IMG/VR virus record: IMGVR_UViG_3300023223_000599
Location: 1 to 64,000 of that record
Source of the DNA: a virus
Reading direction: 5' to 3' (one strand)
Length of the DNA: 64,000 nucleotides
In this document: piece after piece, positions 14,009 to 42,322 of the stretch
How positions within the stretch are numbered: the stretch's first letter is position 1
How the letters are laid out: each line of letters begins with the position of its first letter
The notes under the pieces: model-generated
Databases searched by the model: none
Seen by the model: only the letters and a program-made list of their open reading frames with translations
What the model was told of the DNA's origin: nothing
Made by a program: the position numbers and the translations under genes

Positions 14009-14011
14009 CAC

Positions 14012-15495: not shown

Positions 15496-15589
15496 TCAAA
15501 TAAGCTAAGTCTTTTTTGGCGCATTCATCAGAGCAATAAGCGCTGTCCACAACCCAACCATCATTGCAATACTTGCATTTATTCATCAT
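15467..15589 (-). CDS. Cys-rich mini-protein (40 aa, below cutoff)
   Basis: ATG 15589 is preceded by AGGAGG. My translation: MMNKCKYCNDGWVVDSAYCSDECAKKDLAYLNGEADIYED. Confidence 0.45.
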   Translation of the reverse strand: MMNKCKYCNDGWVVDSAYCSDECAKKDLAYLNGEADIYED

Positions 15590-15830: not shown

Positions 15831-15870
15831 CGTCACCCTGGCACGCCCTGATTCAGAATAGAAATATCTT

Positions 15871-16053
15871 CTACTCACTCCTAGACCTCCACTCACCGCA
15901 CCAATCATCATTAACTTCTGGAAACATTGATTCAAATGTATCTGAATCTGAATCATAAACTACTTGAGGCGGAAACCTTCTACACTCCTTATTGAGCTGA
16001 TTGAACAAGCAAGTTCCACAATGATTTCTATCTTGAATTGCCATCTTTATCAT
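15871..16053 (-). CDS. hypothetical Cys-containing protein
   Basis: 60-aa ORF. Confidence 0.5.
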   Translation of the reverse strand: MIKMAIQDRNHCGTCLFNQLNKECRRFPPQVVYDSDSDTFESMFPEVNDDWCGEWRSRSE

Positions 16054-16131
16054 CCTTCACATCTAGTTTGTCATATATTCTCACAAAAGCTTGAAGCAGC
16101 AATTCAAGAATGTTCATTTTTCTTTGAAGCT

Positions 16132-16302
16132 TCAACATAATGTGTGTGTGTTTTGAACTAAATAAGCAAGAATCAAGAGCTGATAAATCGTTGGCCATCT
16201 GCCGCTATACCAATAACAAAGAGAAACGACTACACAGAAGCCAAACATTGTTCCCAGAAAATCAACAATACCTGCCGCATATTTTGAATTCTTCTTGCTC
16301 AA
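16132..16302 (-). CDS. small membrane protein (56 aa, below cutoff)
   Basis: TTG 16302 is preceded by TAGAAAAGGAGAACTAAA, the same leader and TTG start as the gene at 23471. Hydrophobic stretch GIVDFLGTMFGFCVVVSLCYWY. Confidence 0.45.
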   Translation of the reverse strand: MSKKNSKYAAGIVDFLGTMFGFCVVVSLCYWYSGRWPTIYQLLILAYLVQNTHTLC

Positions 16303-16326
16303 TTTAGTTCTCCTTTTCTATTAAGC

Positions 16327-16355
16327 ATCATATGACACTGACTTACAAAAGACAA
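16327..16355 (-). promoter_or_regulatory. sigma70-like promoter candidate
   Basis: Coding strand reads TTGTCT-(17 nt)-TATGAT in GTTGTCTTTTGTAAG, followed by GCTTAATAGAAAAGGAG. Confidence 0.6.
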
Positions 16356-16374
16356 CAGTTAATATTGATAAAAT

Positions 16375-16626
16375 TCATTTTCCTCTCCCACAAAAACTTG
16401 ACCTATGATTCTGACCACATTTCCTACAAAAATCTTCTTCAATAAAGTACTCTTTTGCTATTTCATGCACTGCATCCGCGAACGCCCTTAATTGTGCCGT
16501 TGTAGTATCAATATAGTCAACCTTACCACTGCCACCACATGACCCACAGCGCCCACCTGTCACTCTATCATCACCGCCTGAACCCTTGCAGTTATCACAT
16601 CTAACTTTGGCGGGGGTCCATATCAC
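16375..16626 (-). CDS. DnaJ-type zinc-finger protein
   Basis: 83 aa with CDNCKGSGG...CGSCGGSGKV (two CxxCxGxG motifs) plus C-terminal CRKCG. Confidence 0.6.
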   Translation of the reverse strand: MIWTPAKVRCDNCKGSGGDDRVTGGRCGSCGGSGKVDYIDTTTAQLRAFADAVHEIAKEYFIEEDFCRKCGQNHRSSFCGRGK

Positions 16627-16889
16627 AGAGTTTTAACAACTTCTTGGAGATATTCGATCACACTTAAAACAGATTTTTTATCCATATTGAAATCAATTGT
16701 TTCATCTAGGAGGGTTGAATGCTTGTTTTTCATGAAACCGCAAACACTGACAATAATTCTCTTGTGTTTGTCTTGGCCTTTTATAGGGGCCATTGAAACG
16801 CTCACCCGACTATCTACGCTGCTGATACTCATGACGTCCATAATGGTTAATTTATCATCAACAACATTTGTTATTATTGCTTGTTCCAT
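16623..16889 (-). CDS. hypothetical protein
   Basis: 88-aa ORF with TAATG coupling upstream. Confidence 0.55.
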   Translation of the reverse strand: MEQAIITNVVDDKLTIMDVMSISSVDSRVSVSMAPIKGQDKHKRIIVSVCGFMKNKHSTLLDETIDFNMDKKSVLSVIEYLQEVVKTL

Positions 16890-17062
16890 TATGACAAGCC
16901 TTCCAAAGTCTTTTTCAAGGCCTTCTTCTCAATCAATTCAAGCCTCAATTCTTTCATCTCTTCTTCAAGACTTTTAATCCTTGAATTTGTGATACTAAGT
17001 TCAAGCTCTGGGCTCATGTTATCTGTGCCCCATCCCCATTTTTTACTTTTTAAACCCATCAT
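16889..17062 (-). CDS. hypothetical coiled-coil protein (57 aa, below cutoff)
   Basis: ATG 17062 forms an ATGA overlap with the 17059 stop. My translation: MMGLKSKKWGWGTDNMSPELELSITNSRIKSLEEEMKELRLELIEKK... Confidence 0.45.
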   Translation of the reverse strand: MMGLKSKKWGWGTDNMSPELELSITNSRIKSLEEEMKELRLELIEKKALKKTLEGLS

Positions 17063-17271
17063 TCTTCACCTTCAAAATCCTTGCATGTTGAGCCCTTATT
17101 TAGGAATCCAACAATTTTGTCTTTTCCAACATTCATTTTATCGCTGACATCCCAATGACCCATTTCACATTTAAACTCGGCGCTCTCTCCGGGGGTGTAT
17201 TCACTATAAGCTGGACAACCACTATCAAAGACGCAAAACTTACAATCCAGGCATTTGTATTTTTCGTTCAT
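17059..17271 (-). CDS. Cys-rich mini-protein
   Basis: 70 aa with CLDCKFC...C...C...C. Confidence 0.55.
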   Translation of the reverse strand: MNEKYKCLDCKFCVFDSGCPAYSEYTPGESAEFKCEMGHWDVSDKMNVGKDKIVGFLNKGSTCKDFEGEE

Positions 17272-17477
17272 TATGAAGCCGCCTTACTAATAGCCCAAAT
17301 CATCATACAAGCCATAAACACCAAAAGAATCACTAATGAAAATTCACCAACTCCGTTTTTGATATATTCCCATCTCCTTATATCAATATCTTTTTCGTTA
17401 TCCAAACTTTTATAGTTCATATATTGAGCAAATAAACCACCAGAAACAAATCCTAAAAATAAATACAGTGCAATCAT
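17271..17477 (-). CDS. small membrane protein (2 predicted TM)
   Basis: 68 aa. Hydrophobic stretches IALYLFLGFVSGGLFA and FSLVILLVFMACMMIWAI. Confidence 0.55.
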   Translation of the reverse strand: MIALYLFLGFVSGGLFAQYMNYKSLDNEKDIDIRRWEYIKNGVGEFSLVILLVFMACMMIWAISKAAS

Positions 17478-17669
17478 TTATTCCTCCCACCCAATTGTGA
17501 CATTTCCAGGCTTAACACCCAAGGCATCAGCTATCTCTTGACATAAATTGATCTTCAATGATTTCCATGGACCATCTGAACCTGATTCAATAAATGATTT
17601 TATCAGCATTCTTTGAAAATCTGGCTCATCCATCAATTCAAACATTTGATCCTTTGTATAAGATATCAC
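17478..17669 (-). CDS. hypothetical acidic protein
   Basis: The track ORF is trimmed to GTG 17669 (GTGA overlap with the 30-aa ORF upstream). An alternative ATG lies at 17642. Confidence 0.4.
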   Translation of the reverse strand: MISYTKDQMFELMDEPDFQRMLIKSFIESGSDGPWKSLKINLCQEIADALGVKPGNVTIGWEE

Positions 17670-17758
17670 CTCGACCCCAACCCCATCTTCACGGCACAGA
17701 AGACGATAAAAGAAACAACGACAACCAACAATGTGAATGCTTCGATGTTGCTCATCAT
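17666..17758 (-). CDS. possible 30-aa hydrophobic peptide
   Basis: ATG 17758 forms an ATGA overlap with the 17755 stop. My translation: MMSNIEAFTLLVVVVSFIVFCAVKMGLGSR. Confidence 0.3.
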   Translation of the reverse strand: MMSNIEAFTLLVVVVSFIVFCAVKMGLGSR

Positions 17759-17967
17759 GATCTCCATATCCATCTAAACAATTCAAGAAGCCCATAAGAA
17801 ACCCCGCCAATTAATGCGATTGTGAATATCCACCCGCCAATGTCTCTCACAGCTCGTTTTATGGGCGTTCTATCTGGTATTTTATCCCACCAATCGGATG
17901 AGGTGCATATGGACATGCCAACAAGCAACCCGATTACATAGGCGGCGTACATTGATAAATAACTCAT
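17755..17967 (-). CDS. small membrane protein
   Basis: The track ORF is trimmed to ATG 17967 (ATGA overlap with the 17964 stop). Hydrophobic stretches YAAYVIGLLVGMSI and WIFTIALIGGVSYGLL. Confidence 0.5.
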   Translation of the reverse strand: MSYLSMYAAYVIGLLVGMSICTSSDWWDKIPDRTPIKRAVRDIGGWIFTIALIGGVSYGLLELFRWIWRS

Positions 17968-18161
17968 CGCCCAATCGCTCCCTTTGATAAAACAATGATG
18001 CATTTCTTACAAACTGTTTTGTCTGCAAATTGCAAACGGTCAAGTTTTGCCTTGTTGTTTTCATCAAAAGAGATGCCAACAAAATTTTTCATGAGCTTTT
18101 CCTCGTCACATAAAAAGCAATAATAACATTCTTCATGACTGTGCGTTTTACTGTTTGGCAC
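17964..18161 (-). CDS. zinc-ribbon mini-protein
   Basis: 65 aa with CYYCFLC...CKKC. Confidence 0.55.
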   Translation of the reverse strand: MPNSKTHSHEECYYCFLCDEEKLMKNFVGISFDENNKAKLDRLQFADKTVCKKCIIVLSKGAIGR

Positions 18162-18352
18162 TAGTTATCCTCCAATAAATCATCAACAAACTTATCAATC
18201 TTTTCAAAGTTATAAAGAGCCAAATCATCCGGCCTGACATTTCCCAATAATGGATTCGGTGTTGTCATCCAAAGATGAGCCTTTGCTTCATCACCTTGAA
18301 AAGCATTTTTGATCTTTTCATGCAGTTCATAGAATCGCTTTGGGCTACTCAT
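18161..18352 (-). CDS. MbcA/ParS-type antitoxin toxin-binding domain (DUF2384-like), stand-alone
   Basis: 63 aa. EAKAHLWMTTPNPLLGNVRPDDLALYNFEKIDKFVDDL matches the A..W...PNP.LGG..P..L signature of DUF2384 as I remember it. No RES-type partner is adjacent. Confidence 0.5.
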   Translation of the reverse strand: MSSPKRFYELHEKIKNAFQGDEAKAHLWMTTPNPLLGNVRPDDLALYNFEKIDKFVDDLLEDN

Positions 18353-18741
18353 CTCACATCCCTAAATAAAACCTTAAGACCGAGTAAAGTTTCTTTGTGA
18401 CAATCGTATATCTGCCCATAATGAACGGAGTGTATAATTGCATGGCGTTGATCGTGGGTAATGGCAACGTATTTAATTGACCCTTTTTTATCTCGCATTA
18501 AAATATTTCCTACAAGATTAACAAGTTCGACGCCTTGCTCTTTCTTACCTGTCACATCAAGAAGGTTTTCATCACCCTGTTCATCATTGAGGTATTCGTA
18601 AATTATTTTAAGCAATCTATGGTCAGACATATGCGTTTGCATTGGCCCAACTTCACCAAGCGGCGACGCTCTAATATCGAACCTATCAGAAAGCATTGTT
18701 TTTATTTCGGCAAATATTGGTTTCTTTTTACTCATCATCAC
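18349..18741 (-). CDS. hypothetical protein
   Basis: 130-aa ORF. Confidence 0.6.
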   Translation of the reverse strand: MMMSKKKPIFAEIKTMLSDRFDIRASPLGEVGPMQTHMSDHRLLKIIYEYLNDEQGDENLLDVTGKKEQGVELVNLVGNILMRDKKGSIKYVAITHDQRHAIIHSVHYGQIYDCHKETLLGLKVLFRDVR

Positions 18742-18979
18742 ACCAAGCCTTAAAAATCATCCCTGCAGTAAGCAATGGAAATACAAACATCCAAAGAAAA
18801 CAAATGCACAACCAAAGCCATCCAATACGCATGAAGAATTGATTGCAATAATCCCACGGTTCAACAAGGGTTATTGATATCAGCCAATGATGAGATTCAA
18901 TAGCCATTCCCAAGAGGAAATATGAAACGATGAACGATAACACAGCCTCAACAATAGTTTTTTCTTTTTTAGTCATCAT
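18728..18979 (-). CDS. membrane protein (about 3 TM)
   Basis: The track ORF is trimmed to ATG 18979 (MMTKKEKT...). Hydrophobic stretches VLSFIVSYFLLGMAI and WLWLCICFLWMFVFPLLTAGMIF. Confidence 0.5.
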   Translation of the reverse strand: MMTKKEKTIVEAVLSFIVSYFLLGMAIESHHWLISITLVEPWDYCNQFFMRIGWLWLCICFLWMFVFPLLTAGMIFKAWCDDE

Positions 18980-19214
18980 ATTCCCCACGCTTAACAAGTT
19001 CTGAGATTATCAAATCATCACGAATATATTTTAGATCTTTATAATAGATTTTATTACTAATGCGGCGTTCCTCAAGTTCGTTCTTGAGCCGCTTGGTGGG
19101 CATATCGACAATACTTGGGCCCCGTTTGTGACCCATTGCAAGAGCTGCCATAACTGCCAATTTGTTATAATTTTTATATTCAAGTGGCTTTGCTTCTTTT
19201 CTTTCTTCGTCCAT
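18969..19214 (-). CDS. hypothetical protein
   Basis: The track ORF is trimmed to ATG 19214 (TGATG overlap). Confidence 0.5.
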   Translation of the reverse strand: MDEERKEAKPLEYKNYNKLAVMAALAMGHKRGPSIVDMPTKRLKNELEERRISNKIYYKDLKYIRDDLIISELVKRGEYDD

Positions 19215-19441
19215 CACTTCATCTCCACCCATTTATTATCACCGATTCGGCGCCACATTGTGCCATTTTTTAACCTGACATAAAAACTACCAGAAGATCC
19301 GGTTTTCATTTCGACAACCTTTGATTTTGGCAGCGGTTGACCTGATGAAGCTTTATAAATCAATTCGCGGAACATCACGATAAAAAGAAGCCCCATGCCT
19401 AAAAACACACAAAACAATAATGTTTTCTGGCTCTTATCCAT
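19214..19441 (-). CDS. small N-terminally anchored membrane protein
   Basis: The track ORF is trimmed to ATG 19441 (TGATG overlap). Hydrophobic stretch TLLFCVFLGMGLLFIVMF. Confidence 0.5.
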   Translation of the reverse strand: MDKSQKTLLFCVFLGMGLLFIVMFRELIYKASSGQPLPKSKVVEMKTGSSGSFYVRLKNGTMWRRIGDNKWVEMK

Positions 19442-23557: not shown

Positions 23558-25939
23558 TTACAATTCTTGCTCAACACTTTCATCAAAATCAGCATCAATC
23601 GTTTCCCATTCAATTGGCCCAAATGCTTCAGCAAAGAAGGCGCGAGACATTTTAAGATCTGGGAAATAATGGAACCTTGTTCTTGTGAAGTTTTCTTGAA
23701 CACGCCGTGTTTGAATGCCTGGGCATATCTTTCTAAGAAACAAGCCCAAAGAAGTTTCGCATGCTCTCCTGGCCACGTTGAGGCGCTTAGTGTGATTTAT
23801 GTAATCATCAAGAATCATGTTTGATTCGCATCGTTCAAGCCATTGGTCGCTACTCTTGTCTTTTTCAAAGATTTGACCCTTTTGAAGCTTATTAAACCAC
23901 CACTCTTGCTCAACCGTCATTGATAGCATCTTTTGCTCCATCAATGCCTTTGTTTGTGGAACCTTGCGAACCTGAAATTCTGAGATGTCATAATTTAACA
24001 AATAGTGAAGCAATGCCTCTTGGCCGCCACTGTCCATCTGCTTCCTTATAGCGGCGAAATATGAAGAGTTTTGCTGTTGAGTGTCTTTGACATCAATCAC
24101 ACAGTAACGACGCTCATCGCCCCCTGCAGGCACCACGTGATCCTCGTTGCTGGCCATGATCAAGCTTATATAGTTCGGGCAAGCTTCAGCATCAATACCC
24201 TTGGCCTCAATGGTGAGCGTGGGCTCTGTAATCAACGCTTTCAGCACAGAAGCATTCTTTTTATCGTTGGCATAGAAAGCTTCATCAGCAAAAACACACA
24301 CAACATCCCTTAAATGACTGTTAAAGTTGCCAACAAGGTGTGAACTGTTCACAATTTGCATTCCGTGACGCCCAAACAGCTTCAAATACTCGTTAGCGAA
24401 CACGCCTTTTCCAACGCCTCGCTTGCCTTTTAAAACAAGGGCCACTTCACCGGGCCTATCTGGGAACTGAATGCCACGGGCAAGCCATGAAATCACATAA
24501 ATATAGATCTCTTCATCCCCACCACAAATATTTTTCTTAATGTGATCAAGATACAAAGAGCAATCACCCGCAATTGCCTGACAGCCAAAACCCTTCCAAA
24601 GATTGTAATGGCCGGGGGTATCAGCACCCGGTGAAAACACCAATGAATTGTATTGGCGGCGTAATTCGTGATTAATCCACCATTTGCCCACGGGCATCAT
24701 GATCGGCATCATCTTTGCATCCACACCAACTTGAATCTTCTTATTGCAATAACCTTGCGCAAAATCTTGAAAGCTCATTTTGGTGAACCGTGTCCGTTTC
24801 ATCGCTTGGTCATAAACTTCTTCAATTACACGGCATTTTCCGCCCATGTTCCTGATCACTGCAAATTGTTTGTTGAGTTTCTCAAGCCACGGGTCAATGA
24901 CGTGTTCCTTCGCCCTGGCAATCTGCCTTGTGGCGTACTTGTGGGCATTGGCACCCTTATCAATAACGCTTTCAGAAATTCCAAACTCTGGGTCAGTGAT
25001 AATTGAATACATTTTATCATCAGTGAATCCAGCCCTTGCCATTCCACATAAGGCATCAAAAAGCCACGCACTTCTTGAATCATCATCTTCTTTTCTTTCA
25101 TCAGGAAGACGGCCTTGAACAATAATAATCTTCGTTCGGTCACGCAAGTCAAGGTCATTGACATCATCAACACGCTCAATGTTTCCTGATATCTCGACAC
25201 TTACTGATGAAGGGGTTGAGATGCTTGTTTTGCCAACCTGTACTTCAGGCGCTTTTTGAAAAGCGTCTTCATCATAAGTCATACCCATATTCATCTTGTG
25301 AACTTCGGCTAATACAATCTTGCGGCCTTTTTTCCGCTTTTTTGCATCGGGAACATTCAATGTTCCAGGAAGACGGCACAACCTATCAATATTGTGGCAG
25401 TGGTCAGCCTGAAACACTGTTTCAAGCTGTTGGTTGTAGCGTTTGGCATCTTCAGCTAGTTCAAGCTTGCCATCAATTGGAATTGGATTATTGAGCTCCC
25501 AAAAGCCTTGATAACCACCACCTGAATAAATGATGATGGTGGGCTCTGGAATTCCTTCAGGCAGTTTGTCAGTCAAAAGCCCAAGACAACGCTGCTTCTC
25601 AGATTCTAAAAACGATTCTTTGAATTCTGTCGTGCTGTCTTCAGGCGGTGATTCTGGATCAATATCAATGTGAAAATAATTAACACTCTTAATATCGGTC
25701 CTGGCCGCCTTCTTGGTGACCTTGTGCTTGACTGGATTTATTTGAAAATAGAGGTTCCTTTGGCCATTATAAAGCTCAAGCCATTTTCGCATCTCCCCAA
25801 TTGTTGACTGGTAAAAAGTTCTAGTTTCGATTGCCTTTTTATCAGGCTGAATACACGTCAAACACCATGGGCCCTCTGCATAAATTGCTTCGAGGAATGA
25901 AAGTGATTGATCTATTGTGTCATTGTCGACATCATTCAC
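23558..25939 (-). CDS. primase-helicase: AEP (prim-pol/RepB'-like) primase fused to D5/P4-type SF3 helicase
   Basis: 793 aa. N-terminal motifs are NLYFQINPV, YFHIDIDPE (DxD), IIIYSGGGYQGFWEL and DRLCRLPGTLN. The central YNLWKGFG is VirE/D5-N-like. Walker A is LKGKRGVGKGVF and Walker B is VCVFADEA. Confidence 0.8.
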   Translation of the reverse strand: MNDVDNDTIDQSLSFLEAIYAEGPWCLTCIQPDKKAIETRTFYQSTIGEMRKWLELYNGQRNLYFQINPVKHKVTKKAARTDIKSVNYFHIDIDPESPPEDSTTEFKESFLESEKQRCLGLLTDKLPEGIPEPTIIIYSGGGYQGFWELNNPIPIDGKLELAEDAKRYNQQLETVFQADHCHNIDRLCRLPGTLNVPDAKKRKKGRKIVLAEVHKMNMGMTYDEDAFQKAPEVQVGKTSISTPSSVSVEISGNIERVDDVNDLDLRDRTKIIIVQGRLPDERKEDDDSRSAWLFDALCGMARAGFTDDKMYSIITDPEFGISESVIDKGANAHKYATRQIARAKEHVIDPWLEKLNKQFAVIRNMGGKCRVIEEVYDQAMKRTRFTKMSFQDFAQGYCNKKIQVGVDAKMMPIMMPVGKWWINHELRRQYNSLVFSPGADTPGHYNLWKGFGCQAIAGDCSLYLDHIKKNICGGDEEIYIYVISWLARGIQFPDRPGEVALVLKGKRGVGKGVFANEYLKLFGRHGMQIVNSSHLVGNFNSHLRDVVCVFADEAFYANDKKNASVLKALITEPTLTIEAKGIDAEACPNYISLIMASNEDHVVPAGGDERRYCVIDVKDTQQQNSSYFAAIRKQMDSGGQEALLHYLLNYDISEFQVRKVPQTKALMEQKMLSMTVEQEWWFNKLQKGQIFEKDKSSDQWLERCESNMILDDYINHTKRLNVARRACETSLGLFLRKICPGIQTRRVQENFTRTRFHYFPDLKMSRAFFAEAFGPIEWETIDADFDESVEQEL

Positions 25940-28032: not shown

Positions 28033-28390
28033 GATACATCCTAAACACAGCGTCAGAAACTTTTATTGAATTCTTAAGATCTTTATAGTTTTTTTTAAGC
28101 TGTTTAATCGTATCTTTATGAATCTTGATTTTCCTTTTCAATTTTGAATAATCACACCCATCAAAGAATATGCATTGTTGCACTGTAATTATTCGCCTCA
28201 TCCAAATAATATCATCTGACATCTTCATCTGATCAAGCCAATCAATCGCCCTCATGTTACTTTTTTTATTATTACAATCACGGCAACACTTAACCTTATT
28301 ATGCGGATGGTTACAGCCACCTTTTGATATGGCGATAAAGTGATCTGTTGTGGCATCCTTCATGGGCTCACGGCAATAAGTGCAAATCAC
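28025..28390 (-). CDS. HNH endonuclease
   Basis: CTYCREPMKDATTDHFIAISKGGCNHPHNKVKCCRDCNNKKSN is a classical C..C...DH...GG...N...C..CN..K pattern. Confidence 0.75.
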   Translation of the reverse strand: MICTYCREPMKDATTDHFIAISKGGCNHPHNKVKCCRDCNNKKSNMRAIDWLDQMKMSDDIIWMRRIITVQQCIFFDGCDYSKLKRKIKIHKDTIKQLKKNYKDLKNSIKVSDAVFRMYHE

Positions 28391-29019
28391 CCGTGTTCAA
28401 CTTTAATCAATTCCAACTCACCACCATGAACATAAACAGGTGAGCCGCAATTAGTATCAAACTTGCAAGAGGCTTCAGCGCCCATCTGAGCAATCTCTTT
28501 TGCGTTTCTACCATTCTCAAAACTGTCATCCATTGCAACCTCCATTGCACCAAGAGCGTATTCATCACCGCTACCAATGGCCCAGAACTTTTCATGTTCG
28601 TACACGTCACGATGTTCCCCCACACTCCAGATTCCGTATTTATTCGCTATCATGTAAGTGAATTGCCCACACTCAGTTGGTTGATCCGTGTTCTGCGATT
28701 GAGTTGTTAAGTGATAGTTTGCTTTTAAAACGACATGGACAGTGTTAGAAAATTCCATGACATCAGACCACGATTTAAGACATAGATTTTTTATTAAATC
28801 CGGCAATCCTTGAATTGTTTTTCTATTTTCCATAAGATGTCTGAAAGCATCACAAGAGGCCGCCCAACTGCCACAAGCAAAATAATTGCCATCGGCCTCA
28901 ATAATCTTAGATGCATATCTATTATGAGAATCACCAAGTCTTGTTGGGCCAAAAGTAGTTTGGCTATCAGTGGCAATTGCAAAATGATCATCAAATTTAA
29001 CAGCGGTAATTATTGTCAT
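28387..29019 (-). CDS. Ntn hydrolase, HslV/proteasome beta-subunit-like
   Basis: M-TIITAVKFDDHFAIATDSQTTFG puts the Thr nucleophile right after Met. WAIGSGDEYALGAMEVAM parallels the HslV GSGG.YA motif. 210 aa. Confidence 0.6.
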   Translation of the reverse strand: MTIITAVKFDDHFAIATDSQTTFGPTRLGDSHNRYASKIIEADGNYFACGSWAASCDAFRHLMENRKTIQGLPDLIKNLCLKSWSDVMEFSNTVHVVLKANYHLTTQSQNTDQPTECGQFTYMIANKYGIWSVGEHRDVYEHEKFWAIGSGDEYALGAMEVAMDDSFENGRNAKEIAQMGAEASCKFDTNCGSPVYVHGGELELIKVEHG

Positions 29020-31490: not shown

Positions 31491-31966
31491 TATAATTCCT
31501 TTATATTTCTTAAGTGATGTCTGTATGCCAAGTTCTTGAACACTCTAAAAAACTCTTTGTCATCAAGCCTTCTTGGTGATAAGAGCCTTGGCGCTTTCCT
31601 AATCTCTTCAAAAACAACCCTGCCCGATAGGTCAATCTCATACTCAATAAGCCCACAATAAAGAGGAACTTCTTCACGTTTGACAATTCCCTTTATAAGA
31701 ACGAATGTGAATGTTGCAAGGCCTGAACGCCCGTTTTCGATCTTCTTATGCTTCATCCCATGGTTCTTATGGAAATCTGCAAGATAATCTTTTCGAGTGC
31801 ATTTTATTTCATATTCGTGGACGTGCCTTACTGGTGTTATTCTGGCAAAATCACATTCTTTGAATGTGTCATAAACATAACAATGCTCAAGGCAGATATT
31901 TTGACTTTTAAGTTTGTTGTATTTTAAGCTGAGCGCGTGTGATACATTGTGGGCTATTGTTTTCAT
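31490..31966 (-). CDS. PD-(D/E)XK nuclease-like protein (MmcB-like, tentative)
   Basis: 158 aa. CDFARITPVRHVHEYEIKCTRKDYLADF contains a D...E.K arrangement. Confidence 0.35.
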   Translation of the reverse strand: MKTIAHNVSHALSLKYNKLKSQNICLEHCYVYDTFKECDFARITPVRHVHEYEIKCTRKDYLADFHKNHGMKHKKIENGRSGLATFTFVLIKGIVKREEVPLYCGLIEYEIDLSGRVVFEEIRKAPRLLSPRRLDDKEFFRVFKNLAYRHHLRNIKEL

Positions 31967-32184
31967 ACATTATCCCATCTAATTTTTATTTGTTCGCTTA
32001 GATACTCTTTTTGATCACCTGTCAAATTGTCAATAAACAAATCAATTGAACAAGATTGACAGCCATCGTTTTCATCATAAAATTGATCATGATCATCACA
32101 TTTTTGTGGACATGGAGAACAGGCAAGGCCGCTTCCATTATCTAGGCCGCAATTAGGGCACGAATCATTTTCAGGTTGTGACAT
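31963..32184 (-). CDS. Cys-rich acidic mini-protein
   Basis: The track ORF is trimmed to ATG 32184 (MSQPENDSCPNCG...), preceded by AGAAAGAGAGAACTATT. Confidence 0.55.
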   Translation of the reverse strand: MSQPENDSCPNCGLDNGSGLACSPCPQKCDDHDQFYDENDGCQSCSIDLFIDNLTGDQKEYLSEQIKIRWDNV

Positions 32185-32208
32185 AATAGTTCTCTCTTTC
32201 TGAAAACC

Positions 32209-32237
32209 ATTATGCAAAACTGTCATACAAAAGACAA
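32209..32237 (-). promoter_or_regulatory. sigma70-like promoter candidate
   Basis: Coding strand reads TTGTCT-(17 nt)-CATAAT in CTTGTCTTTTGTATG. Confidence 0.5.
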
Positions 32238-32262: not shown

Positions 32263-32697
32263 TTAAGTTGCGGTTGTACATGCCTGTTTGACATCTTGCC
32301 AAAGTGTCGGGCTCTTAAGAATAAACTGTGCGCCCATAGATTCAACACGTTGCATTTCATGTTCACTAATTTTTGCGGCTGATACAAATATTAATTTATC
32401 CGCACGATCTTTCAAATTCATTTTTTCAGCAAGAGAAATACCCGTGATATCAGGCATACGGACATCAATGATCAATCTTGACTTTCCGTTTTCACGCAAG
32501 ATGACATTTAAATATTTTGTATCGGTTAATGTTTTAATGTTGACATCGGGGCCCGCTGATCGTTCTAGAATTTTGAGCCAATCCTTGTCATCGTCAATAA
32601 ACAAATATAATTCTGCCGGCTTACAACCCAAACTCTCCATGTCGGTTTGGATATCATTCATTAGATCACGAACTTCTTGCCTCATTTGCTTAATCAA
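32263..32697 (-). CDS. stand-alone response-regulator receiver (CheY-like REC) domain protein
   Basis: All REC landmarks are present: LYLFIDDD (acidic pair), RLIIDVRMPDITG (phospho-acceptor Asp followed by MP...G), KLIFVSA (Ser/Thr) and AQFILKSP (Lys). There is no output domain. TTG start; an alternative ATG lies at 32685. Confidence 0.7.
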   Translation of the reverse strand: MIKQMRQEVRDLMNDIQTDMESLGCKPAELYLFIDDDKDWLKILERSAGPDVNIKTLTDTKYLNVILRENGKSRLIIDVRMPDITGISLAEKMNLKDRADKLIFVSAAKISEHEMQRVESMGAQFILKSPTLWQDVKQACTTAT

Positions 32698-33101
32698 CCT
32701 CCACCTTTTATATAGGTTACCACTATAGCGGTGATTATGGAAACAACAAGGGAAACGATTACAGCATTTTTTGCAACCTTCAAATGAATGGCATTAACTT
32801 TGTCATCAATTTTCATCATTTTGTCATCAACTTTTGTCATCTTGTCGTCAATATGACTGTATAAGTCGCTATCTCCCTTTACCCTCTTTGATTCAAGTGT
32901 TTCTTTCAAGTCATCAAGGTCTTTCCCAACCTCCTTTTCAAAGGCTCTAAAGGCCTTTTCAAGGTCTGTTTCTGTCACTTTATTTGAAAGCTTTTCTTCA
33001 CTCACCGCAATTTCAGTGAATAGTTTTGACAATCTGTCATTAATTTTAGTCAACAACTCGTTGACGGCATCTGTCACCTCACCCAATTTTAAGCCTTCCA
33101 T
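32694..33101 (-). CDS. tail-anchored coiled-coil membrane protein
   Basis: 135 aa with the repeat DDKMTKVDDKMMKIDDKVN and the C-terminal TM segment AVIVSLVVSIITAIVVTYI. Its stop overlaps the REC gene start. Confidence 0.6.
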   Translation of the reverse strand: MEGLKLGEVTDAVNELLTKINDRLSKLFTEIAVSEEKLSNKVTETDLEKAFRAFEKEVGKDLDDLKETLESKRVKGDSDLYSHIDDKMTKVDDKMMKIDDKVNAIHLKVAKNAVIVSLVVSIITAIVVTYIKGGG

Positions 33102-33173
33102 TAAGATGACTTATTGTAATAAAAGATGACACTATAAACCATGATAGCCTACCCCAAAAATGAATGCAGTTAT

Positions 33174-33201
33174 AAAAAAAGCCCAACTTTATAAGTCGGG
33201 C
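33174..33201 (-). terminator. rho-independent terminator
   Basis: Coding strand reads GCCCGAC-TTATAAA-GTTGGGC, a 7-bp stem including one G-U pair, followed by seven T. It lies 35 nt after the stop at 33236. Confidence 0.75.
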
Positions 33202-33235: not shown

Positions 33236-33691
33236 CTAGCCTGTGTCTTTTTTCTGTTCATCTTTCTGTACAGTTTCTTCTTTTCCCCGGTTAAGGAATT
33301 CTTGACACATTTCCCTTGAACGTTGTAGGCCATTGTGAACACTGTCCAAATTGTCATATGAAAGATTTAATATATTTAGAATATCATTTGGAGTAAAATC
33401 AAATTCACCAAATAGTTTTTGAAGATTCCCAATTTCAACAAGAATCTTTGCAGAGTGAACGCGCAAATCTTCAATCACATTCAACGAATCCTTGCAAAGA
33501 TTATTCATTTCATGAATTGGTTTGACCTTCAAATTATATGGTTTTCCATAAGAAAAAATTGATGAGAACATATCACCAAAATTATCCGATCCTTCACCTT
33601 CACGATGTAGAATTATTTCATCATCATCATGCTTGCCTTCGCACATCTTGAGAATGTTTTTCACGGTTAATGACTTTCCCTCACTCATCAT
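33236..33691 (-). CDS. hypothetical protein
   Basis: The track ORF is trimmed to ATG 33691 (MMSEGKSL...), overlapping the upstream stop. Confidence 0.55.
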   Translation of the reverse strand: MMSEGKSLTVKNILKMCEGKHDDDEIILHREGEGSDNFGDMFSSIFSYGKPYNLKVKPIHEMNNLCKDSLNVIEDLRVHSAKILVEIGNLQKLFGEFDFTPNDILNILNLSYDNLDSVHNGLQRSREMCQEFLNRGKEETVQKDEQKKDTG

Positions 33692-35180
33692 CAACACCGT
33701 TGAACTCATTGGTTTTCCAATAGGCCCAGATATGAGGAACGTCACCATTTTCAATTGCATCAATAACTGTTGCGGCCGCGTCTTCAGTAATCCCAAGAAT
33801 ATCATTCATTCCAGCAATCGCCGCCTTGCGCATGTCTGAAATCTTCAATGACAACTCGTTAGCCTTGGCTGTTTCATCTTCTTCTTTTTGTTTGGCGGCG
33901 GCTTCTTTTTCAATTGCGCCTTTGATTTTGGCGTCGAGAAGGGCAATGAGCTTTTTCTTTTCATTGTCGGCCCTGTCTTGAAAGTCTTCATCAACACTTG
34001 CTGAACAACCCTCAAAAATAATCTTTGCTTTTTTAAGAGCTTCAGAATCAAGATTGTCAACGGTTGACAATGATTGTCTCATCTCAAGAATGGCAGCTTC
34101 ATTCTTTTCTTTGCGACGATATTCTTCACGCTCTTTGGCTTGGTTCTTTTTGCGTTCGATTTCTTCGCTTTCTTCTTTCAGGCGTTTTGCTTCGGCTGCT
34201 TGTTTTTTTCGTGTTTCCTCTTGTTCAGCCTGTTGCTCTTCAACACGTTGTCTTCGGTTTTGATCTTCTTTGATATCATCAATACGCTGATTTAAGACGA
34301 TTTCAGCGGCGGCAATCATGTCAAAGACTTCTTGCTCAAATTCTTGAAAGTCAAGATCATTATATATTTTCTTTGCACTGTCTAAGCAAACACCAACAGC
34401 AACTTCATTGATTGCAATCTTGCCCTTGTTCAAAAACTCTTTAACTCTATCAATATTTCTTTTATGCATATCAAATCTGTTTGCCTCTTTTTCCTTCTTG
34501 GCATCTTCTTCAGCCTGTTTGGCTTTCTCAGCCTCGAACTTTTTTCGGTCTTCTTCAAGGCGCTTTGTTTCTTCTTCATTGGCAAGTGTCTGCTTATAAA
34601 GGTTTTCCATATTTTCAATGGTTCCTTGACGCTTGATCACTGCTTGATTTTTGAATTCTTGAAAAAACTCTTCATCAATAACGATTTCTTCAAGCGTTAC
34701 AATTATAGATTTTATTTGAACTGCTGATTTTCCTTGAGCCTCAATAAAGAATTGGCCGATATCTTCAATTTCATCAGTGATCTTTTTGACGCGGGTTGCT
34801 TCAGCAAGTTTCTTCTTCAGCTTTTCTTCTTCTTTGACATTGTCAAAGGTCTTCTTGACTTCTTTCAAGGGATCTTCAAGGCTGCGAATCTGGCCCGTTC
34901 TTTTATTGGCTTCATTGTTTACCGCATCAATATAATCACGGTGTAGTTTTGTCTTTTCTTTTTTGTGATTTTCAAGACCCGTTCTTAATCCGACTAATTT
35001 GCGAATGCCTAAACGGGCAAACTCATATTCTTCTTTATTTGACAAATCCAATGCTTCAGGATTTTTGAATTCTTCTGCAAGTTCAACCATGAATTTATCG
35101 GTCACATTGTTGATGATTATCTCGTTTGGGTCAATTACTTCGGGCAAACCTGCTTGTTCTGCCTGCTTTGTCTCGCTCAC
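33681..35180 (-). CDS. Lys/Glu-rich coiled-coil protein
   Basis: 499 aa. GTG start preceded by AAGAAAAGGAGAACTAA. The long KE-rich low-complexity core generates several shadow ORFs. Confidence 0.7.
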   Translation of the reverse strand: MSETKQAEQAGLPEVIDPNEIIINNVTDKFMVELAEEFKNPEALDLSNKEEYEFARLGIRKLVGLRTGLENHKKEKTKLHRDYIDAVNNEANKRTGQIRSLEDPLKEVKKTFDNVKEEEKLKKKLAEATRVKKITDEIEDIGQFFIEAQGKSAVQIKSIIVTLEEIVIDEEFFQEFKNQAVIKRQGTIENMENLYKQTLANEEETKRLEEDRKKFEAEKAKQAEEDAKKEKEANRFDMHKRNIDRVKEFLNKGKIAINEVAVGVCLDSAKKIYNDLDFQEFEQEVFDMIAAAEIVLNQRIDDIKEDQNRRQRVEEQQAEQEETRKKQAAEAKRLKEESEEIERKKNQAKEREEYRRKEKNEAAILEMRQSLSTVDNLDSEALKKAKIIFEGCSASVDEDFQDRADNEKKKLIALLDAKIKGAIEKEAAAKQKEEDETAKANELSLKISDMRKAAIAGMNDILGITEDAAATVIDAIENGDVPHIWAYWKTNEFNGVDDE

Positions 35181-35727: not shown

Positions 35728-35756
35728 ATTATGCAACACCACTTAACAAAAGACAA
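35728..35756 (-). promoter_or_regulatory. sigma70-like promoter candidate
   Basis: Coding strand reads TTGTCT-(17 nt)-CATAAT in GTTGTCTTTTGTTAA, 14 nt after the helicase stop. Confidence 0.55.
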
Positions 35757-35769
35757 CAACAAACTTCAA

Positions 35770-37071
35770 TTACATCAAAATAATTCTAACATTCTTGGCG
35801 GCTCTGGTAATCCCAGTATATAGCCATTTCCACCTGTCTTTTTTAAAGACCGCGCTTTGATCAAAAAGGGCTACATGATCCCATTGAGAACCCTGAGACT
35901 TATGAACAGTCAAGGCATATCCATAATCAAACTCTTCAGCTTCTTTTTTCTCCCACCATTGAAGGTTTTTTTCCTTTCCTTCAAAATAATGCGTGTGAGT
36001 GATCAAGTGTTGAATATCAGTGCCAGATTCAGATTTTACCGTGATTCCAATCTTATCTTCAAGATTTACACGTGCTTCATCAAACGGATCAAAATCTTCA
36101 CCTTCCGGATTGTTGAGTTGGGCTATCTGCCCATCACTTAGAATGTCTTTGACAGTCCATAGGCCGCCATTTAAGAGCCCAAGCTCATGATTGTTGCGTA
36201 AACACACCAACTTGTCGTTTCTAATCGGCATTAGGCCCTCAAAGCCTTTTAAAGCTCGTATCCTTTTATTGGTGGCTGATCTAGTGGTATTCTTGCCCAC
36301 AAGGATCTGGTCAGCGGCCAAGGCTTCTTCAGGCTCAATCTTATTGACAACGAGGCATTCACCATAATTGCCCAAAGAAAGCGCTTCCTGGTTGCGCACC
36401 TTCGTTGCAAGGGCAATGATTGGGCTATCTTTAGCCTGTCTGTGAATCTGGGTCAACATAACATCGGGGGGCCCATTTTTGGCGGCTGTAAAGAAACCGG
36501 CACCACCCACCGGTGGCAACTGTGCAGGGTCGCCCAAGACAAGAACCTTTGTGCCGAATGAAAGAAGGTCTTCACCCATTTTCTCACCAACCATTGAACA
36601 TTCATCAATAATTATCAACGCTGCATGTTTGACTTCACTGTCTGGATTCAATTCAAATATTGGCCTTTTCATGTTGGCTTGTTCATCTTCGACTGTGAGG
36701 GTTAATTGTTGAACCTCCATGTCGTTTGCCAATGCATCATCGTCACAGCCTTGCAAAGACAATTCTGCTTTACGATTTGTCAATTCTTCTTGCGCTTTGT
36801 TAAGCTTGCGCTGACTTTTACCTTTAGGCAAATAAATCATTGAATGAATCGTGGTTGCATTGTTGCAACCCTTTGATTGCAAAACATATGCGGCTTTACC
36901 AGTGAAGGCCCCGAATAATACGGTTCCATTAACACCTTCGGCAAAATGCTTTGCTAGTGTGGTTTTACCTGTTCCAGCATAACCAAATAATTTGAATACT
37001 TGCTGATCACTTCTTGTGATCCAATCATTAACACGTTTTAACGCTCTCTCTTGCTCCGGTGGAAAATCCAT
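35770..37071 (-). CDS. SF1 DNA helicase, RecD/Dda/PIF1-like
   Basis: Motifs present: GYAGTGKTT (Walker A), LIIIDECSMV, LVLGDPAQLPPV, LTQIHRQ and YALTVHKSQGSQWD. Confidence 0.85.
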   Translation of the reverse strand: MDFPPEQERALKRVNDWITRSDQQVFKLFGYAGTGKTTLAKHFAEGVNGTVLFGAFTGKAAYVLQSKGCNNATTIHSMIYLPKGKSQRKLNKAQEELTNRKAELSLQGCDDDALANDMEVQQLTLTVEDEQANMKRPIFELNPDSEVKHAALIIIDECSMVGEKMGEDLLSFGTKVLVLGDPAQLPPVGGAGFFTAAKNGPPDVMLTQIHRQAKDSPIIALATKVRNQEALSLGNYGECLVVNKIEPEEALAADQILVGKNTTRSATNKRIRALKGFEGLMPIRNDKLVCLRNNHELGLLNGGLWTVKDILSDGQIAQLNNPEGEDFDPFDEARVNLEDKIGITVKSESGTDIQHLITHTHYFEGKEKNLQWWEKKEAEEFDYGYALTVHKSQGSQWDHVALFDQSAVFKKDRWKWLYTGITRAAKNVRIILM

Positions 37072-39586: not shown

Positions 39587-39966
39587 GCCATCCTATTGAT
39601 TTCATTAAAAAGATCATTCACTTCAAGAGGAATATATTTTTGATCTTTTCCATGCCATTGTAGGGATTTTAGATTGCCTTCATTGTATTCTGCAGCGATT
39701 GCACCGGCCATTACAATAAAAAGAGGATTTCCGATAAATAAAATGTAGTCATTTGCCGAAAAGTATTTGAGCTTCTCATGTAACTCCCGCTTAATTGGCT
39801 TGCTGTCAAAGGGCTTTGCTGTTGGGCTCAACAAGAAAACGATTTCGCCGTATTCTTTAGCTGATGACAAATCGAAACGAGGAACAAATTTTCCCTGTTC
39901 TTTGTCGTATTTTGTTTGCTCTTGTACCACATAAACCGTCATTTTATATCCATTCTTTAAGCTCAT
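39583..39966 (-). CDS. hypothetical protein
   Basis: 127-aa ORF. An alternative ATG at 39942 lies 1 nt after the helicase stop. Confidence 0.55.
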   Translation of the reverse strand: MSLKNGYKMTVYVVQEQTKYDKEQGKFVPRFDLSSAKEYGEIVFLLSPTAKPFDSKPIKRELHEKLKYFSANDYILFIGNPLFIVMAGAIAAEYNEGNLKSLQWHGKDQKYIPLEVNDLFNEINRMA

Positions 39967-42322
39967 CGCCTCTTATCTGTGCGGCTACATCATACTTGTT
40001 TCTTAATGCATCCGCAATCTTTTCGTCACCTGTTCCAGGACAAACAACGTCATTATATGTCACGGCGTTGTGCTGTCCTATGCGGTGATTTCTGTCTTCA
40101 CTTTGAAGTCTCATCTCAAGACTGTATGAGTTTGAGTGATAGATTGATTCCGTAGCATTGATAACCGTGATGCCCGTGGCACCCTTCTGAGGATTGGCCA
40201 CAAAGTGTTGTTTATCACCACGCCTGAACGCCTCTAATGAAATAGCTGCATCTTCACTAGTCATTTTCCCATCGTATCGTGCGCCCCTATCGCCCAACCG
40301 CTCCATCAGCACATCAATCTCGGGGCTGAATCGTGCCCATATAATCGCTTGGTGCGTGGCATCTTCCAGGTGGGCAATTGTTGCATCAATCCGTGGGTTG
40401 TTCTTGCCAATAAAGACTAAAGGTTCGTCTGGTCCTGTGGAAGCATACCCACAAGTGATTTGTTGCAGCCTCATCATCCTGACAATGGGCAAGGCTGCAT
40501 CAACCATCATGCCTTCACCATCTTCCTCACCCGTTTCAATAATTGTCATGTATTCTTCTTTAAGTTGATTGTAGGCCCTCCACTGCTCCGGGTTCATATC
40601 AAAGTAAATCTTTGAATACAATTTATCAGGAATGCCCAACCCCGCACTGTCTTTCGTGACACGTGATGAGATGGTTTTAATAATGTCGCGCAATTTATCG
40701 AGGTTCTTATATGACAACAATTTATCATAGCCCGGATCATAGCCATACTCATCAATGACTTGTTGCCTCTTCTGCCAAACGCCAAAGAACGACTTATATG
40801 CCGCAAAACTTCCCAAGTGGTGACGTTTCCAAAACTCTGGATCAAGGAACTTCATTGGCGTGTATAAATCAAACGGACCTTCAGCGCCCAAGGTTCCAGA
40901 TAACACACGCTTATAAGTTGCGTAACGCCCAGAAGCAACAATTGATTTTGTGCGCTTGGCGCCTGGGCTCTTAATTTTTTGTGCTTCATCAAGAACATAA
41001 TAACATTTACGCTTTGTCAAAAAGTCCCATGCAAGCTTCTTGCCTGCCTTCGTCATAAAGCCTTCATAAGTCATGGCTAAAATAGATAGCCCTTTATAAT
41101 TCAGCACATCAGCGCAAGCTTGTTTATGCCACTTTGTCTTGGCTCGTTTCGATTCATAAAAATGAACCTCCGCTTTTTCCAATAATTCAGGCGGCAAATG
41201 TGCCGGTAATTCATCAGTGATCCAATTGCGATGGACGCCATTAGGGGCCACAACAAAAAGAGAATCAACTTCACCTTTGTCATATAGGTATTGAAACTCA
41301 TCAATATTTAATTTTGATTTGCCGGTGTTCCCCGTAATAAAAACACGTCCACTTCTTCTTAAAACAAGAAATGTTGTTGGCACTTTAAAACAATATTTAA
41401 AACCATCTGAAGAATATTCTGGATAAATATCTTCAATACACTTAAGTTTGGGAAGTTTTGTGCCGTTATTAGAGATAACCCAACCCTTTTCTTGTCGCCT
41501 CTTGGAGTACGAAAAAAAACCTTGGGAACAAGCAATGAATTGTATGAAGTCAGCATTTTCTTCTGTGTCTGTATAGAGTTGATTATCTTGTGTGAGCGTC
41601 CATCTAAAGGCCTCATCAACAATTATATCGCGCTCTTTGTTGGTGATCTTATTCCACCATGTATGATCAAAGCCATCGTAGGCCTTTTTCACTTGATATC
41701 TTTTACCCGCTGTTCGTGTCGTGCTGTAGGTGCTTTTTGTTCCTGTCAGCTTTAAAAATCGAATCAATCGGTCTTGGCGATCTTCCGGCCATGAGGCCCT
41801 AAATCTCACATCAGTTCCATTTGTAGAGGTTCTACGGCCTTGAATGATAAGAATAGTCATCAATCTAAGCTCTGGTTCGGTCATGCCCAAGCCTTCGCCT
41901 GTCATATCGTATTTGAATAATCGTGGCATATAAACATCTTTGCCATCATCACAAATATCTGTAACTGATTTTATAAACATCAATGGATAATTTTGATATT
42001 TTGACGCTGAAAACAACACCCGATGATTCGGTGTCAACATTTGATCAATTTCTTTATTATAGAAATGAACCATCTTTTCACACGGCTCTTTAATGTATTC
42101 AACAGGCTCAACAAAATTAATTTTTCCTGTTCCACTATCATACTGAGCCACCGGCTCACCACGATATCTATCTATACGGCGCCAACCAGAAGGGCTTAAA
42201 TATTCAGTTTCGGCATCAACGCATCCTTGTTCCCATAAATGGGCATATGCTTTAATGTCTTTTGAATTGTCAAACTCTTCTTTTTGATATGGGAATGGTT
42301 TTGTGTGGAATTTGAATGTCAA
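39944..42322 (-). CDS. SNF2-family (SF2) helicase precursor containing an intein
   Basis: 792 aa. TTG start preceded by TAGAAAAGGAGAACTAGAGA. The extein motifs are LWEQG|TGKSK (split P-loop), LDEAQKIK (motif II) and LQSEDRNHRIGQ (motif VI). Confidence 0.8.
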   Translation of the reverse strand: MTFKFHTKPFPYQKEEFDNSKDIKAYAHLWEQGCVDAETEYLSPSGWRRIDRYRGEPVAQYDSGTGKINFVEPVEYIKEPCEKMVHFYNKEIDQMLTPNHRVLFSASKYQNYPLMFIKSVTDICDDGKDVYMPRLFKYDMTGEGLGMTEPELRLMTILIIQGRRTSTNGTDVRFRASWPEDRQDRLIRFLKLTGTKSTYSTTRTAGKRYQVKKAYDGFDHTWWNKITNKERDIIVDEAFRWTLTQDNQLYTDTEENADFIQFIACSQGFFSYSKRRQEKGWVISNNGTKLPKLKCIEDIYPEYSSDGFKYCFKVPTTFLVLRRSGRVFITGNTGKSKLNIDEFQYLYDKGEVDSLFVVAPNGVHRNWITDELPAHLPPELLEKAEVHFYESKRAKTKWHKQACADVLNYKGLSILAMTYEGFMTKAGKKLAWDFLTKRKCYYVLDEAQKIKSPGAKRTKSIVASGRYATYKRVLSGTLGAEGPFDLYTPMKFLDPEFWKRHHLGSFAAYKSFFGVWQKRQQVIDEYGYDPGYDKLLSYKNLDKLRDIIKTISSRVTKDSAGLGIPDKLYSKIYFDMNPEQWRAYNQLKEEYMTIIETGEEDGEGMMVDAALPIVRMMRLQQITCGYASTGPDEPLVFIGKNNPRIDATIAHLEDATHQAIIWARFSPEIDVLMERLGDRGARYDGKMTSEDAAISLEAFRRGDKQHFVANPQKGATGITVINATESIYHSNSYSLEMRLQSEDRNHRIGQHNAVTYNDVVCPGTGDEKIADALRNKYDVAAQIRGDELKEWI
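41327..42223 (-). mobile_element. intein (299 aa, Cys34 to Asn332 of the helicase precursor)
   Basis: It begins with CVDAETEYLSPSGW (block A, Cys1) and contains MLTPNHRVLF (block B, T..H). It ends KYCFKVPTTFLVLRRSGRVFITGN followed by Thr+1. Codons were checked: 42221-42223 gca gives TGC, and 41327-41329 gtt gives AAC. Removal restores GTGKS. Confidence 0.7.

Follow-up and report, generated by a model that had tools for sequence, protein, structure and literature searches.

Two-component systems are the main sensory circuitry of bacteria, and they control phage receptors, envelope stress and some defence systems. Among their components, the single-domain response regulators (CheY, Spo0F, DivK and CpdR; Pfam PF00072 only) consist of a stand-alone (βα)5 receiver with no output domain. 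Receivers are also found joined to other structural elements, as in FrzS of Myxococcus, in which a degenerate receiver is attached to a coiled coil in a single polypeptide. The only experimentally described phage strategy of a related kind that we found in the literature, and by analogy the nearest functional precedent for the genes described here, is that of PIT4, an early 131-amino-acid (aa) protein of Pseudomonas phage LSL4 (Nankokuvirus) that binds histidine-kinase domains and interferes with two-component systems (PMC10714779). Jumbo phages encode receiver-fold domains termed cREC, which are found without linkage to a kinase and retain their catalytic Asp residues (Iyer et al. 2021, PMC7824862). 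In Escherichia coli, the membrane protein BcsF recruits by way of the N-terminal domain of BcsE and not through a receiver (PMC7840130); this pair was therefore rejected as a precedent for a membrane protein that recruits a receiver. A literature search found no paper on a phage receiver paired with a tail-anchored protein.

Here we describe such a pair in a 64,000-nucleotide (nt) stretch of viral DNA (positions 1 to 64,000 of IMG/VR virus record IMGVR_UViG_3300023223_000599; hereafter, the window). Two adjacent genes on the minus strand encode a predicted tail-anchored helical protein and, immediately after it, a stand-alone receiver. The pair is an undescribed, rare but recurrent phage module that probably lets the phage plug into host two-component signalling at the membrane.

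32694-33101, minus strand: gene 1, a tail-anchored, all-helical, coiled-coil-like protein of 135 aa from its ATG (open reading frame and homologues)
32263-32685, minus strand: gene 2, a stand-alone receiver (REC) of 140 aa (Pfam match, structural model and an ATG start set by homologues)

The original prediction, which was made from the letters alone, placed two translationally overlapping genes here. Both open reading frames (ORFs) are present on the minus strand, at 32694-33101 (135 aa) and 32263-32697 (144 aa from a TTG), and both are real genes; the overlap, by contrast, is likely not. The TTG at 32697 is an alternative receiver start. The ATG at 32685 is the likeliest one, because six relatives (proteins P0001-P0003, P0006, P0007 and P0019) begin with Met-Arg and because, in the public annotation of the contig from which the window comes, the gene call (P0001) is a 140-aa protein that starts at this ATG. 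From there the receiver begins 8 nt after the TGA of its partner, so that the two genes are separate and still tightly coupled. The public gene call for the partner (P0004) is 130 aa long, a length consistent with a start at the TTG at 33086. The plus strand carries an antisense ORF (32288-32728, 146 aa) whose length slightly exceeds that of the receiver ORF that it overlaps and which would mislead a gene caller that prefers the longest ORF. We rejected it as an artefact, because it is the minus-strand frame that has a Pfam match, homologues and purifying selection.

Gene 2 encodes a true receiver, which stands alone and whose acidic pocket is intact. It matches the Pfam Response_reg model (PF00072) at 35.9 bits, above the gathering cut-off of 30.2 (E = 9.2e-9), with residues 32-128 aligned to profile positions 2-99 of 111, and a phmmer search of PDB sequences matched it to the receiver domains of XynC and Spo0A. 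An AlphaFold model built on a three-sequence alignment (predicted local distance difference test score (pLDDT) 69.6; predicted template-modelling score (pTM) 0.67) adopts the (βα)5 fold, with β1-α1 to β5-α5 in order, and the PDB structures retrieved with this model by Foldseek are mostly receivers (XynC, Spo0A, CheY, PhoP, ArlR and others; template-modelling scores of ~0.55-0.63, probability ~1.0). The model and these matches dispel the concern that the protein might instead have a flavodoxin-like, non-receiver fold without an acidic pocket. The receiver fold fills residues 25-137 of the 140, leaving no output domain, and is preceded by an extra helix.

32632-32682, minus strand: extra N-terminal helix of the receiver, residues 2-18, before β1 (DSSP on the model, where pLDDT is low)
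32464-32466, minus strand: codon for Asp74, the predicted phospho-acceptor, equivalent to CheY D57 (alignment with E. coli CheY)

Alignment with E. coli CheY bears out the catalytic landmarks that had been read from the sequence, namely the DD pair, the phospho-acceptor loop, the Ser and the Lys: residues D31/D32, D74, S102, F121 and K124 of the window receiver correspond to D12/D13, D57, T87, Y106 and K109 of CheY. The acidic pair has a further aspartate, D33, beside it, and the phospho-acceptor loop, D-V-R-M-P-x-x-x-G, is canonical. The residue after the conserved Lys is Ser in the window receiver and Pro in CheY.

A word-indexed search recovered only two relatives of the receiver. An exhaustive profile search, which covered 1.84 billion cluster representatives, recovered 16 further representatives at E <= 1e-10, all of them stand-alone proteins of 100-151 aa and sharply separated from generic REC domains, in that the receiver domains of multi-domain proteins rank only below this 16-member group. 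Eleven of the 16 align from within the first 20 profile positions and thus span the N-terminal helix, a segment that is also conserved in the alignment of P0001-P0003; complete members of the family are 134-161 aa long. Judged by these profile matches, the receiver belongs to a small, distinct family of stand-alone proteins with an N-helix and a REC domain. Across its 18 members, which share 22-55% overall identity, the acceptor Asp (CheY D57) and the Lys (K109) are each kept in 17, the Ser (T87) in 15 and the aromatic switch residue (Y106) in all 18; about 12 have the full canonical quintet. Retention of the pocket at such low identity argues for selection on phosphorylation chemistry, and the near-constant Asp and Lys suggest that phosphorylation probably matters in most members. 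The possibility that homologues might have lost these two residues had a mixed outcome: 17 of the 18 keep both, and one syntenic relative, P0019, has lost them.

That the pair is not a standard phage module, as had been proposed, holds up against the deposited phages. With E. coli CheY as the query, receivers were found in 88 of 50,697 phage records, many of which are unannotated fragments or bacterial-looking contigs, and the family with the N-helix is absent there: tblastn searches of the same 50,697 records with the window receiver, P0011 and P0007 gave no match. A megablast search of the region against the phage collection likewise returned zero relatives at the nucleotide level.

The partner encoded by gene 1 combines a conserved core, a variable spacer and a membrane anchor.

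32931-33023, minus strand: conserved N-terminal core of the partner, residues 27-57, LFTEIAVSEEKLSNKVTETDLEKAFRAFEKE (near-invariant against the partner in locus L001)
32799-32852, minus strand: 21-nt tandem repeat coding for the heptads DDKMTKV/DDKMMKI/DDKVNAI (Tandem Repeats Finder: 2.6 copies, 81% matches)
32709-32765, minus strand: C-terminal transmembrane helix, residues 113-131 (mean Kyte-Doolittle hydropathy 2.67 over 19 residues)

The single C-terminal transmembrane helix that the original prediction gave this protein is confirmed at residues 113-131 and is followed only by the four residues KGGG. An N-terminal hydrophobic segment is absent, the highest hydropathy elsewhere in the first 40 residues being 0.38, and ~42% of the residues outside the helix are charged. 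Homologues of the partner comprise P0005 in locus L001 and the genes upstream of the receiver in L003-L008. The tail-anchor layout was computed for five partners (the window's and those of L001 and L003-L005) and is present in all of them; it is also visible in the translations from L006-L008. An AlphaFold model of the window protein has three helices of ~30 residues plus the transmembrane helix, at low confidence (pLDDT 53). From its composition and topology, the partner is predicted to be a tail-anchored helical protein that faces the cytoplasm and is held in the inner membrane.

A core near the N terminus, L..EIAV.EEKL.N.VT..L.KA.R...KE, is common to the partners and is followed by the spacer and then the anchor. 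The core at residues 27-57 remains recognisable in L003, L008, L004 and L007, and this conservation makes it a candidate receiver-binding or functional site. The length of the spacer differs by roughly 0-75 aa among partners. The coiled-coil heptad repeat that had been noted in this protein is indeed present, as the 21-nt repeat, but it sits inside this variable spacer and is not conserved in relatives.

Profile searches of Pfam, PHROGs, PADLOC, NCBIfam and the PDB assigned the partner to no meaningful family and returned only noise of the coiled-coil or apolipoprotein type. A role as a defence, exclusion or division protein was rejected on these grounds, since the matches (GajA, LeoA, ZorA, apolipoprotein, EzrA and ZapG) were coiled-coil noise only. 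In PADLOC, the receiver had no match, and the partners had only partial matches of the coiled-coil type (best E = 4.6e-5) that were inconsistent between homologues. We also rejected the partner as a His-less mimic of a dimerization and histidine phosphotransfer (DHp) domain or H-box: it has no conserved His, it does not match HisKA or Hpt at E <= 1, and no kinase is among its 51 PDB profile matches to E = 10. The L001 partner contains no histidine at all, and the partner therefore cannot be a phosphotransfer protein.

We then consider how often the two genes occur together. Contigs were retrieved for ten family members. One of them, L002, was set aside as a chimera, and L008, L009 and L011 are copies of one locus (L011 being L008's own contig), which gives nine distinct loci. 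In eight of the nine (the window, L001, L003, L004, L005, L006, L007 and L008), the gene directly upstream of the receiver encodes a helical protein, 81-168 aa long, whose only transmembrane helix is C-terminal, and the junction between the two genes measures -19 to +8 nt. The pair always sits in an early or replication region, and the phage backbones around it are of at least four kinds: the window and L003 share SNF2, Pam3-like proteins and Dda, L007 has DnaB and DUF1376, L008 has RecT, YqaJ and a 2094-aa LPD38 protein, and L010 has RecT and IstB. The GC content of the family loci ranges from 0.34 to 0.49. Given the differing backbones and this range, the pair behaves like a mobile accessory module that belongs to the early or replication part of the genome. 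Purifying selection acts on both genes, with dN/dS values against L001 of 0.17 for the partner and 0.23 for the receiver (dS is near saturation). A tail-anchored protein upstream of the receiver in eight of nine loci, with tight junctions throughout, supports tethering of the receiver by its partner, for which gene order thus offers strong if indirect support.

Searches beyond these loci extended the set no further. Pattern scans of IMG/VR and the JGI metagenomes with the receiver trio, and of IMG/VR with the partner pair, gave no match. A profile of four partners recovered only L008's own contig from IMG/VR and nothing from 185,579 bacterial and archaeal species genomes; with no partner-motif match in species genomes, there is no prophage copy and no host clue from this source. 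The contig L002, with protein P0003, was rejected as an independent third locus, because it joins an AT-rich receiver fragment to GC-rich flanks; that P0003 seems to lack the C-terminal Lys is consequently an assembly artefact. On this European Nucleotide Archive (ENA) contig (1-844), the receiver fragment occupies ~85-430 within GC-rich DNA, and a serine-recombinase-like ORF starts at 517.

A phage-encoded phosphoryl donor for the receiver was sought with Pfam scans of all 122 window ORFs, then of the ten longest unannotated ORFs and then of 80 small ORFs. Among the matches listed, none belonged to HisKA, HATPase_c, Hpt, CheZ, CheC or Spo0E-type families, in agreement with the earlier remark that no histidine kinase or Hpt is visible in the window.

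Taken together, these observations lead us, tentatively, to a reading of the pair as a phage module that forms a membrane-tethered single-domain response regulator, acting first as a decoy for host kinases and second as a phosphate sink. In this scheme, the conserved N-terminal core of the partner would bind the receiver, possibly through the extra helix of the latter, and would hold it on the cytoplasmic side of the membrane, with the variable coiled-coil spacer setting the distance. The tethered receiver would there meet host membrane sensor kinases, and Asp74 would receive its phosphoryl group from acetyl phosphate or from a host kinase or Hpt. With the kinase occupied, the cognate host regulator would be outcompeted, the phosphate sink being only a secondary effect, and a host two-component response (for example envelope stress, receptor expression, motility or defence) would be blunted early in infection. 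The core activity would be binding and not phosphate turnover, given that the pair persists in one syntenic relative whose pocket is dead. A stronger version, in which a dedicated membrane-tethered receiver plugs host sensor kinases and hijacks phosphotransfer, and so either blinds the envelope or defence response or reads the signalling state, strikes us as doubtful. If true, a virus would here, for the first time, be turning the substrate fold of the kinase itself against two-component signalling, by means of a mobile two-gene unit; the module would offer the virus a new and mechanistically transparent route to interfere with or eavesdrop on host signalling, and would give researchers a compact, portable tool to inhibit kinases at the membrane. 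The family cannot be seen in databases of cultured phages, and as such it shows what metagenomic phage accessory genes still hide.

Several observations weigh against the decoy reading. The relative with the dead pocket, P0019 (in the stretch 6891-7781 of L003, the locus most syntenic with the window), has Ala in place of the Asp, Gly in place of the Ser and G-T in place of the acidic pair (G-T-D), and its Lys position is Ile or Glu, depending on the alignment. It nevertheless keeps a full-length ORF and a clearly homologous partner with the same KGGG end, so the function shared by the family is likelier to be binding than phosphate turnover; a pure phosphate sink appears weakened as a universal explanation. 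Pro follows the Lys in only one of the 18 members, and about a third of them have eroded acidic or Ser positions. The family is less than 30% identical to any cellular receiver and thus displays no visible mimicry of a particular host regulator, as a specific decoy might. In locus L010, the gene upstream of the receiver (P0016) encodes a different, 59-aa protein with an N-terminal transmembrane helix. The terminator that lies directly upstream of the pair, with no detectable promoter after it, suggests low expression, and the clue to the host is limited to the tail proteins, which point no further than to Proteobacteria. Receiver-partner binding, phosphorylation and the host target are all steps that we infer.

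Other readings of the same pair have to be weighed against these points. As the leading alternative, it is possible that the two proteins form a split response regulator, in which the tail-anchored protein is the output and the receiver a phosphorylation-dependent switch set by a host kinase or acetyl phosphate as a report on host physiology. The receiver would then alter the activity or oligomeric state of its membrane partner, and such an output might serve, for example, to exclude superinfecting phages, to disturb a membrane machine (for pili, division or transport) or to time the infection. Small membrane proteins encoded in early phage regions are often exclusion factors, which fits this arrangement. 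The strictly conserved gene order and the translational coupling imply a stoichiometric complex, and mere anchoring would not need the highly conserved core of the partner. Single-domain regulators that act directly on membrane enzymes are known as well, an example being described in PMC12802240. The partner, however, matches no known effector, exclusion or defence family in PADLOC, NCBIfam, Pfam or the PDB, its spacer varies by up to ~75 aa, which fits a tether better than an enzyme-like effector, and only 1-8 residues of the partners lie outside the membrane past the transmembrane helix. Phosphorylation might also be irrelevant altogether, with the REC fold serving as a membrane binding scaffold of the FrzS or BcsE type and the Asp and Lys persisting as structural leftovers. 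We regard such an adaptor as unlikely. P0019 would suit it, having lost the Asp, the Lys, the Ser and most of the acidic pair while retaining its ORF and partner, as would the lack of the Ser in P0018 and P0012, the absence of the Pro after the Lys in 17 of the 18 members and the erosion in many of the MP loop that follows the Asp. What remains hard to explain without selection on the pocket is that the equivalents of Asp74 and Lys124 persist in 17 of 18 members, and the aromatic residue in all 18, at 22-55% identity; the window receiver, moreover, has the full canonical D-x-x-M-P-x-x-x-G loop.

The other two explanations are far less probable. An enzyme of the cREC type, that is, a phosphoesterase with the receiver fold and with cyclic nucleotides or ADP-ribose derivatives as substrates, seems very improbable here. 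The phage receiver-like domains described by Iyer et al. (PMC7824862) retain the catalytic Asp residues and in no case have a linked kinase, and the present family is likewise without a kinase, but the window protein passes the classical Response_reg model with classical loop motifs, its conserved neighbour is a membrane protein, and none of the loci examined has NAD+/ADP-ribose, Macro, NADAR or WYL neighbours. The slightest chance of all attaches to incidental adjacency, with two unrelated accessory genes and no joint function. The pairing of the two proteins would rest on gene order, and L010 has no tail-anchored coiled-coil partner directly upstream; yet the same order and tight junction recur in eight distinct loci with differing backbones and receivers that are 22-55% identical, and it is this shared order that makes chance adjacency unlikely. 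The membrane-tethered decoy is the interpretation to which we return below.

The pair is flanked by two transcriptional signals.

33174-33201, minus strand: Rho-independent terminator upstream of the pair (GC-rich stem plus U7)
32209-32237, minus strand: sigma-70-like promoter element, TTGTCT-17-CATAAT, just past the receiver stop and before the next gene (31963-32226)

A simple terminator scan missed the hairpin at 33174-33201, and folding confirmed it: with the flanking A-U pairs included, the stem has 13 bp and the fold a free energy of -16.9 kcal/mol (z = -4.27), and none of 200 shuffled sequences folds as well. The promoter element at 32209-32237, also noted in the original prediction, was found by our scan and recurs both in the window and in L001. 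Its extended form, TTGTCTTTTGT-N9-TTGCATAAT, has exactly two copies in the window, where ~0.01 would be expected by chance. The second, at 35728-35756 on the minus strand, precedes the gene cluster at 35704, and both copies stand ~20-30 nt upstream of a ribosome-binding site and ATG. In L001, a TTGTCTTTTGT...CATAAT element also follows the receiver gene, at about 1362-1390, and in L003 a near-consensus TTGGAA-16-TATAAT occupies the equivalent place. This recurrence suggests that the element is probably a phage-specific class of middle or early promoter. The description of the pair as an insulated cassette was nonetheless overstated. The terminator stands only upstream; a consensus scan detected no sigma-70-like promoter between it and gene 1, and no terminator was found between the receiver stop and the next promoter, so that 'insulated' is too strong a word. 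The consensus scans, which leave room for non-canonical promoters, thus found neither the upstream promoter nor the downstream terminator of its own that would mark the pair as a moron.

The window derives from a tailed phage, and 118 of its 123 picked ORFs are on the minus strand. A lambda-like tail module at 46-58 kb comprises the tape measure, J, L, M and a K-like NlpC/JAB protein, and the replication region includes a primase (23558-25939), a Dda-like helicase (35770-37071) and an SNF2 helicase (39944-42322), along with Pam3-like proteins. The tail proteins reach ~53% identity at most with counterparts in cultured phages, and these phages all infect Proteobacteria.

The surroundings of the pair, in the window and in the related loci, hold several further features. 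Upstream of the terminator, the minus-strand gene at 33681-35180 encodes a 499-aa Lys/Glu-rich coiled-coil protein (phrog_16469, with a weak TolA-like match). Its C-terminal motif, ...GD(V/I)PH(I/V)(W/Y)A.W, is kept in the gene upstream of the pair in L001, and the gene is absent from L003. A 189-aa ORF at 33236-33805 (minus strand) overlaps the 499-aa gene by 125 nt and has no homologue or family match. Farther away, at 28387-29019 on the minus strand, a 210-aa ORF matches Pfam Proteasome (PF00227) at 24.8 bits against a cut-off of 22.4 (E = 1.9e-5) over residues 130-167 only; it could be a phage HslV/proteasome-like subunit or a marginal match. Pfam matches of the small early ORFs (243-43869) include one EF-hand (E = 4.9e-5), two DnaJ-type CXXCXGXG zinc fingers and one each of the Xre/MbcA/ParS antitoxin C-terminal domain, ASCH and HNH. 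In L008, the 2094-aa LPD38 protein, a large polyvalent protein, is encoded at 12975-19259 (minus strand), 2.5 kb downstream of the receiver module and on the opposite strand. In L010 (region 9309-10423), a soluble DivIC/ZapB-like coiled-coil protein is encoded two genes upstream of P0016 and may be a rearranged or split partner.

How, then, does the pair compare with the systems described so far? The window receiver shares with the single-domain response regulators a stand-alone (βα)5 receiver with the same pocket and no output domain, and, like them, it would be expected to act by protein-protein interaction. Unlike them, it is encoded by a phage, has no cognate kinase, carries an extra N-terminal helix and has a tail-anchored neighbour, and the chemotaxis, sporulation or cell-cycle context of the CpdR/DivK/Spo0F/CheY class is missing. 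It is not CheY proper, being 17% identical to the E. coli protein, and there are no che genes in the window or the related loci; in NCBIfam it obtains only sub-threshold matches to generic regulators.

Compared with other viral receivers, the module also stands apart. The cREC domains are defined by linkage to NAD+/ADP-ribose-processing and cyclic-nucleotide genes, whereas the conserved neighbour of the present receivers is a membrane anchor, and neither NAD+/ADP-ribose nor cyclic-nucleotide families were found in the window scan or among the called genes of L003, L007, L008 and L010. Small or stand-alone receivers do turn up sporadically in phages: BFVD contains other small phage receivers, such as a 149-aa protein of Alteromonas phage vB_AmeM_PT11-V22 and a 'CheY-like receiver' of an uncultured Caudovirales, and PHROGs 731, 5982 and 37855 match the window receiver at E = 5e-6 or weaker. 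These small phage receivers are functionally uncharacterised; they fall outside the family with the N-helix, and their likeness to the window receiver is at the level of fold or domain (Foldseek E of 1e-2 or weaker for the named examples). With FrzS and BcsE, the pair would share a receiver fold together with recruitment to the membrane by a coiled coil or a small membrane protein, and P0019 resembles such pseudo-receivers; the family differs from them in being viral and in that most members have an intact pocket.

PIT4 comes closest to the function that we propose for the membrane-tethered decoy. No sequence relationship between the two was found, and the window receiver has no tblastn match in the phage collection. 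PIT4 is similar to it in size but has neither a recognisable domain nor a membrane partner. Unlike that of PIT4, the mechanism proposed here would make use of the receiver fold, the natural substrate of the kinase itself.

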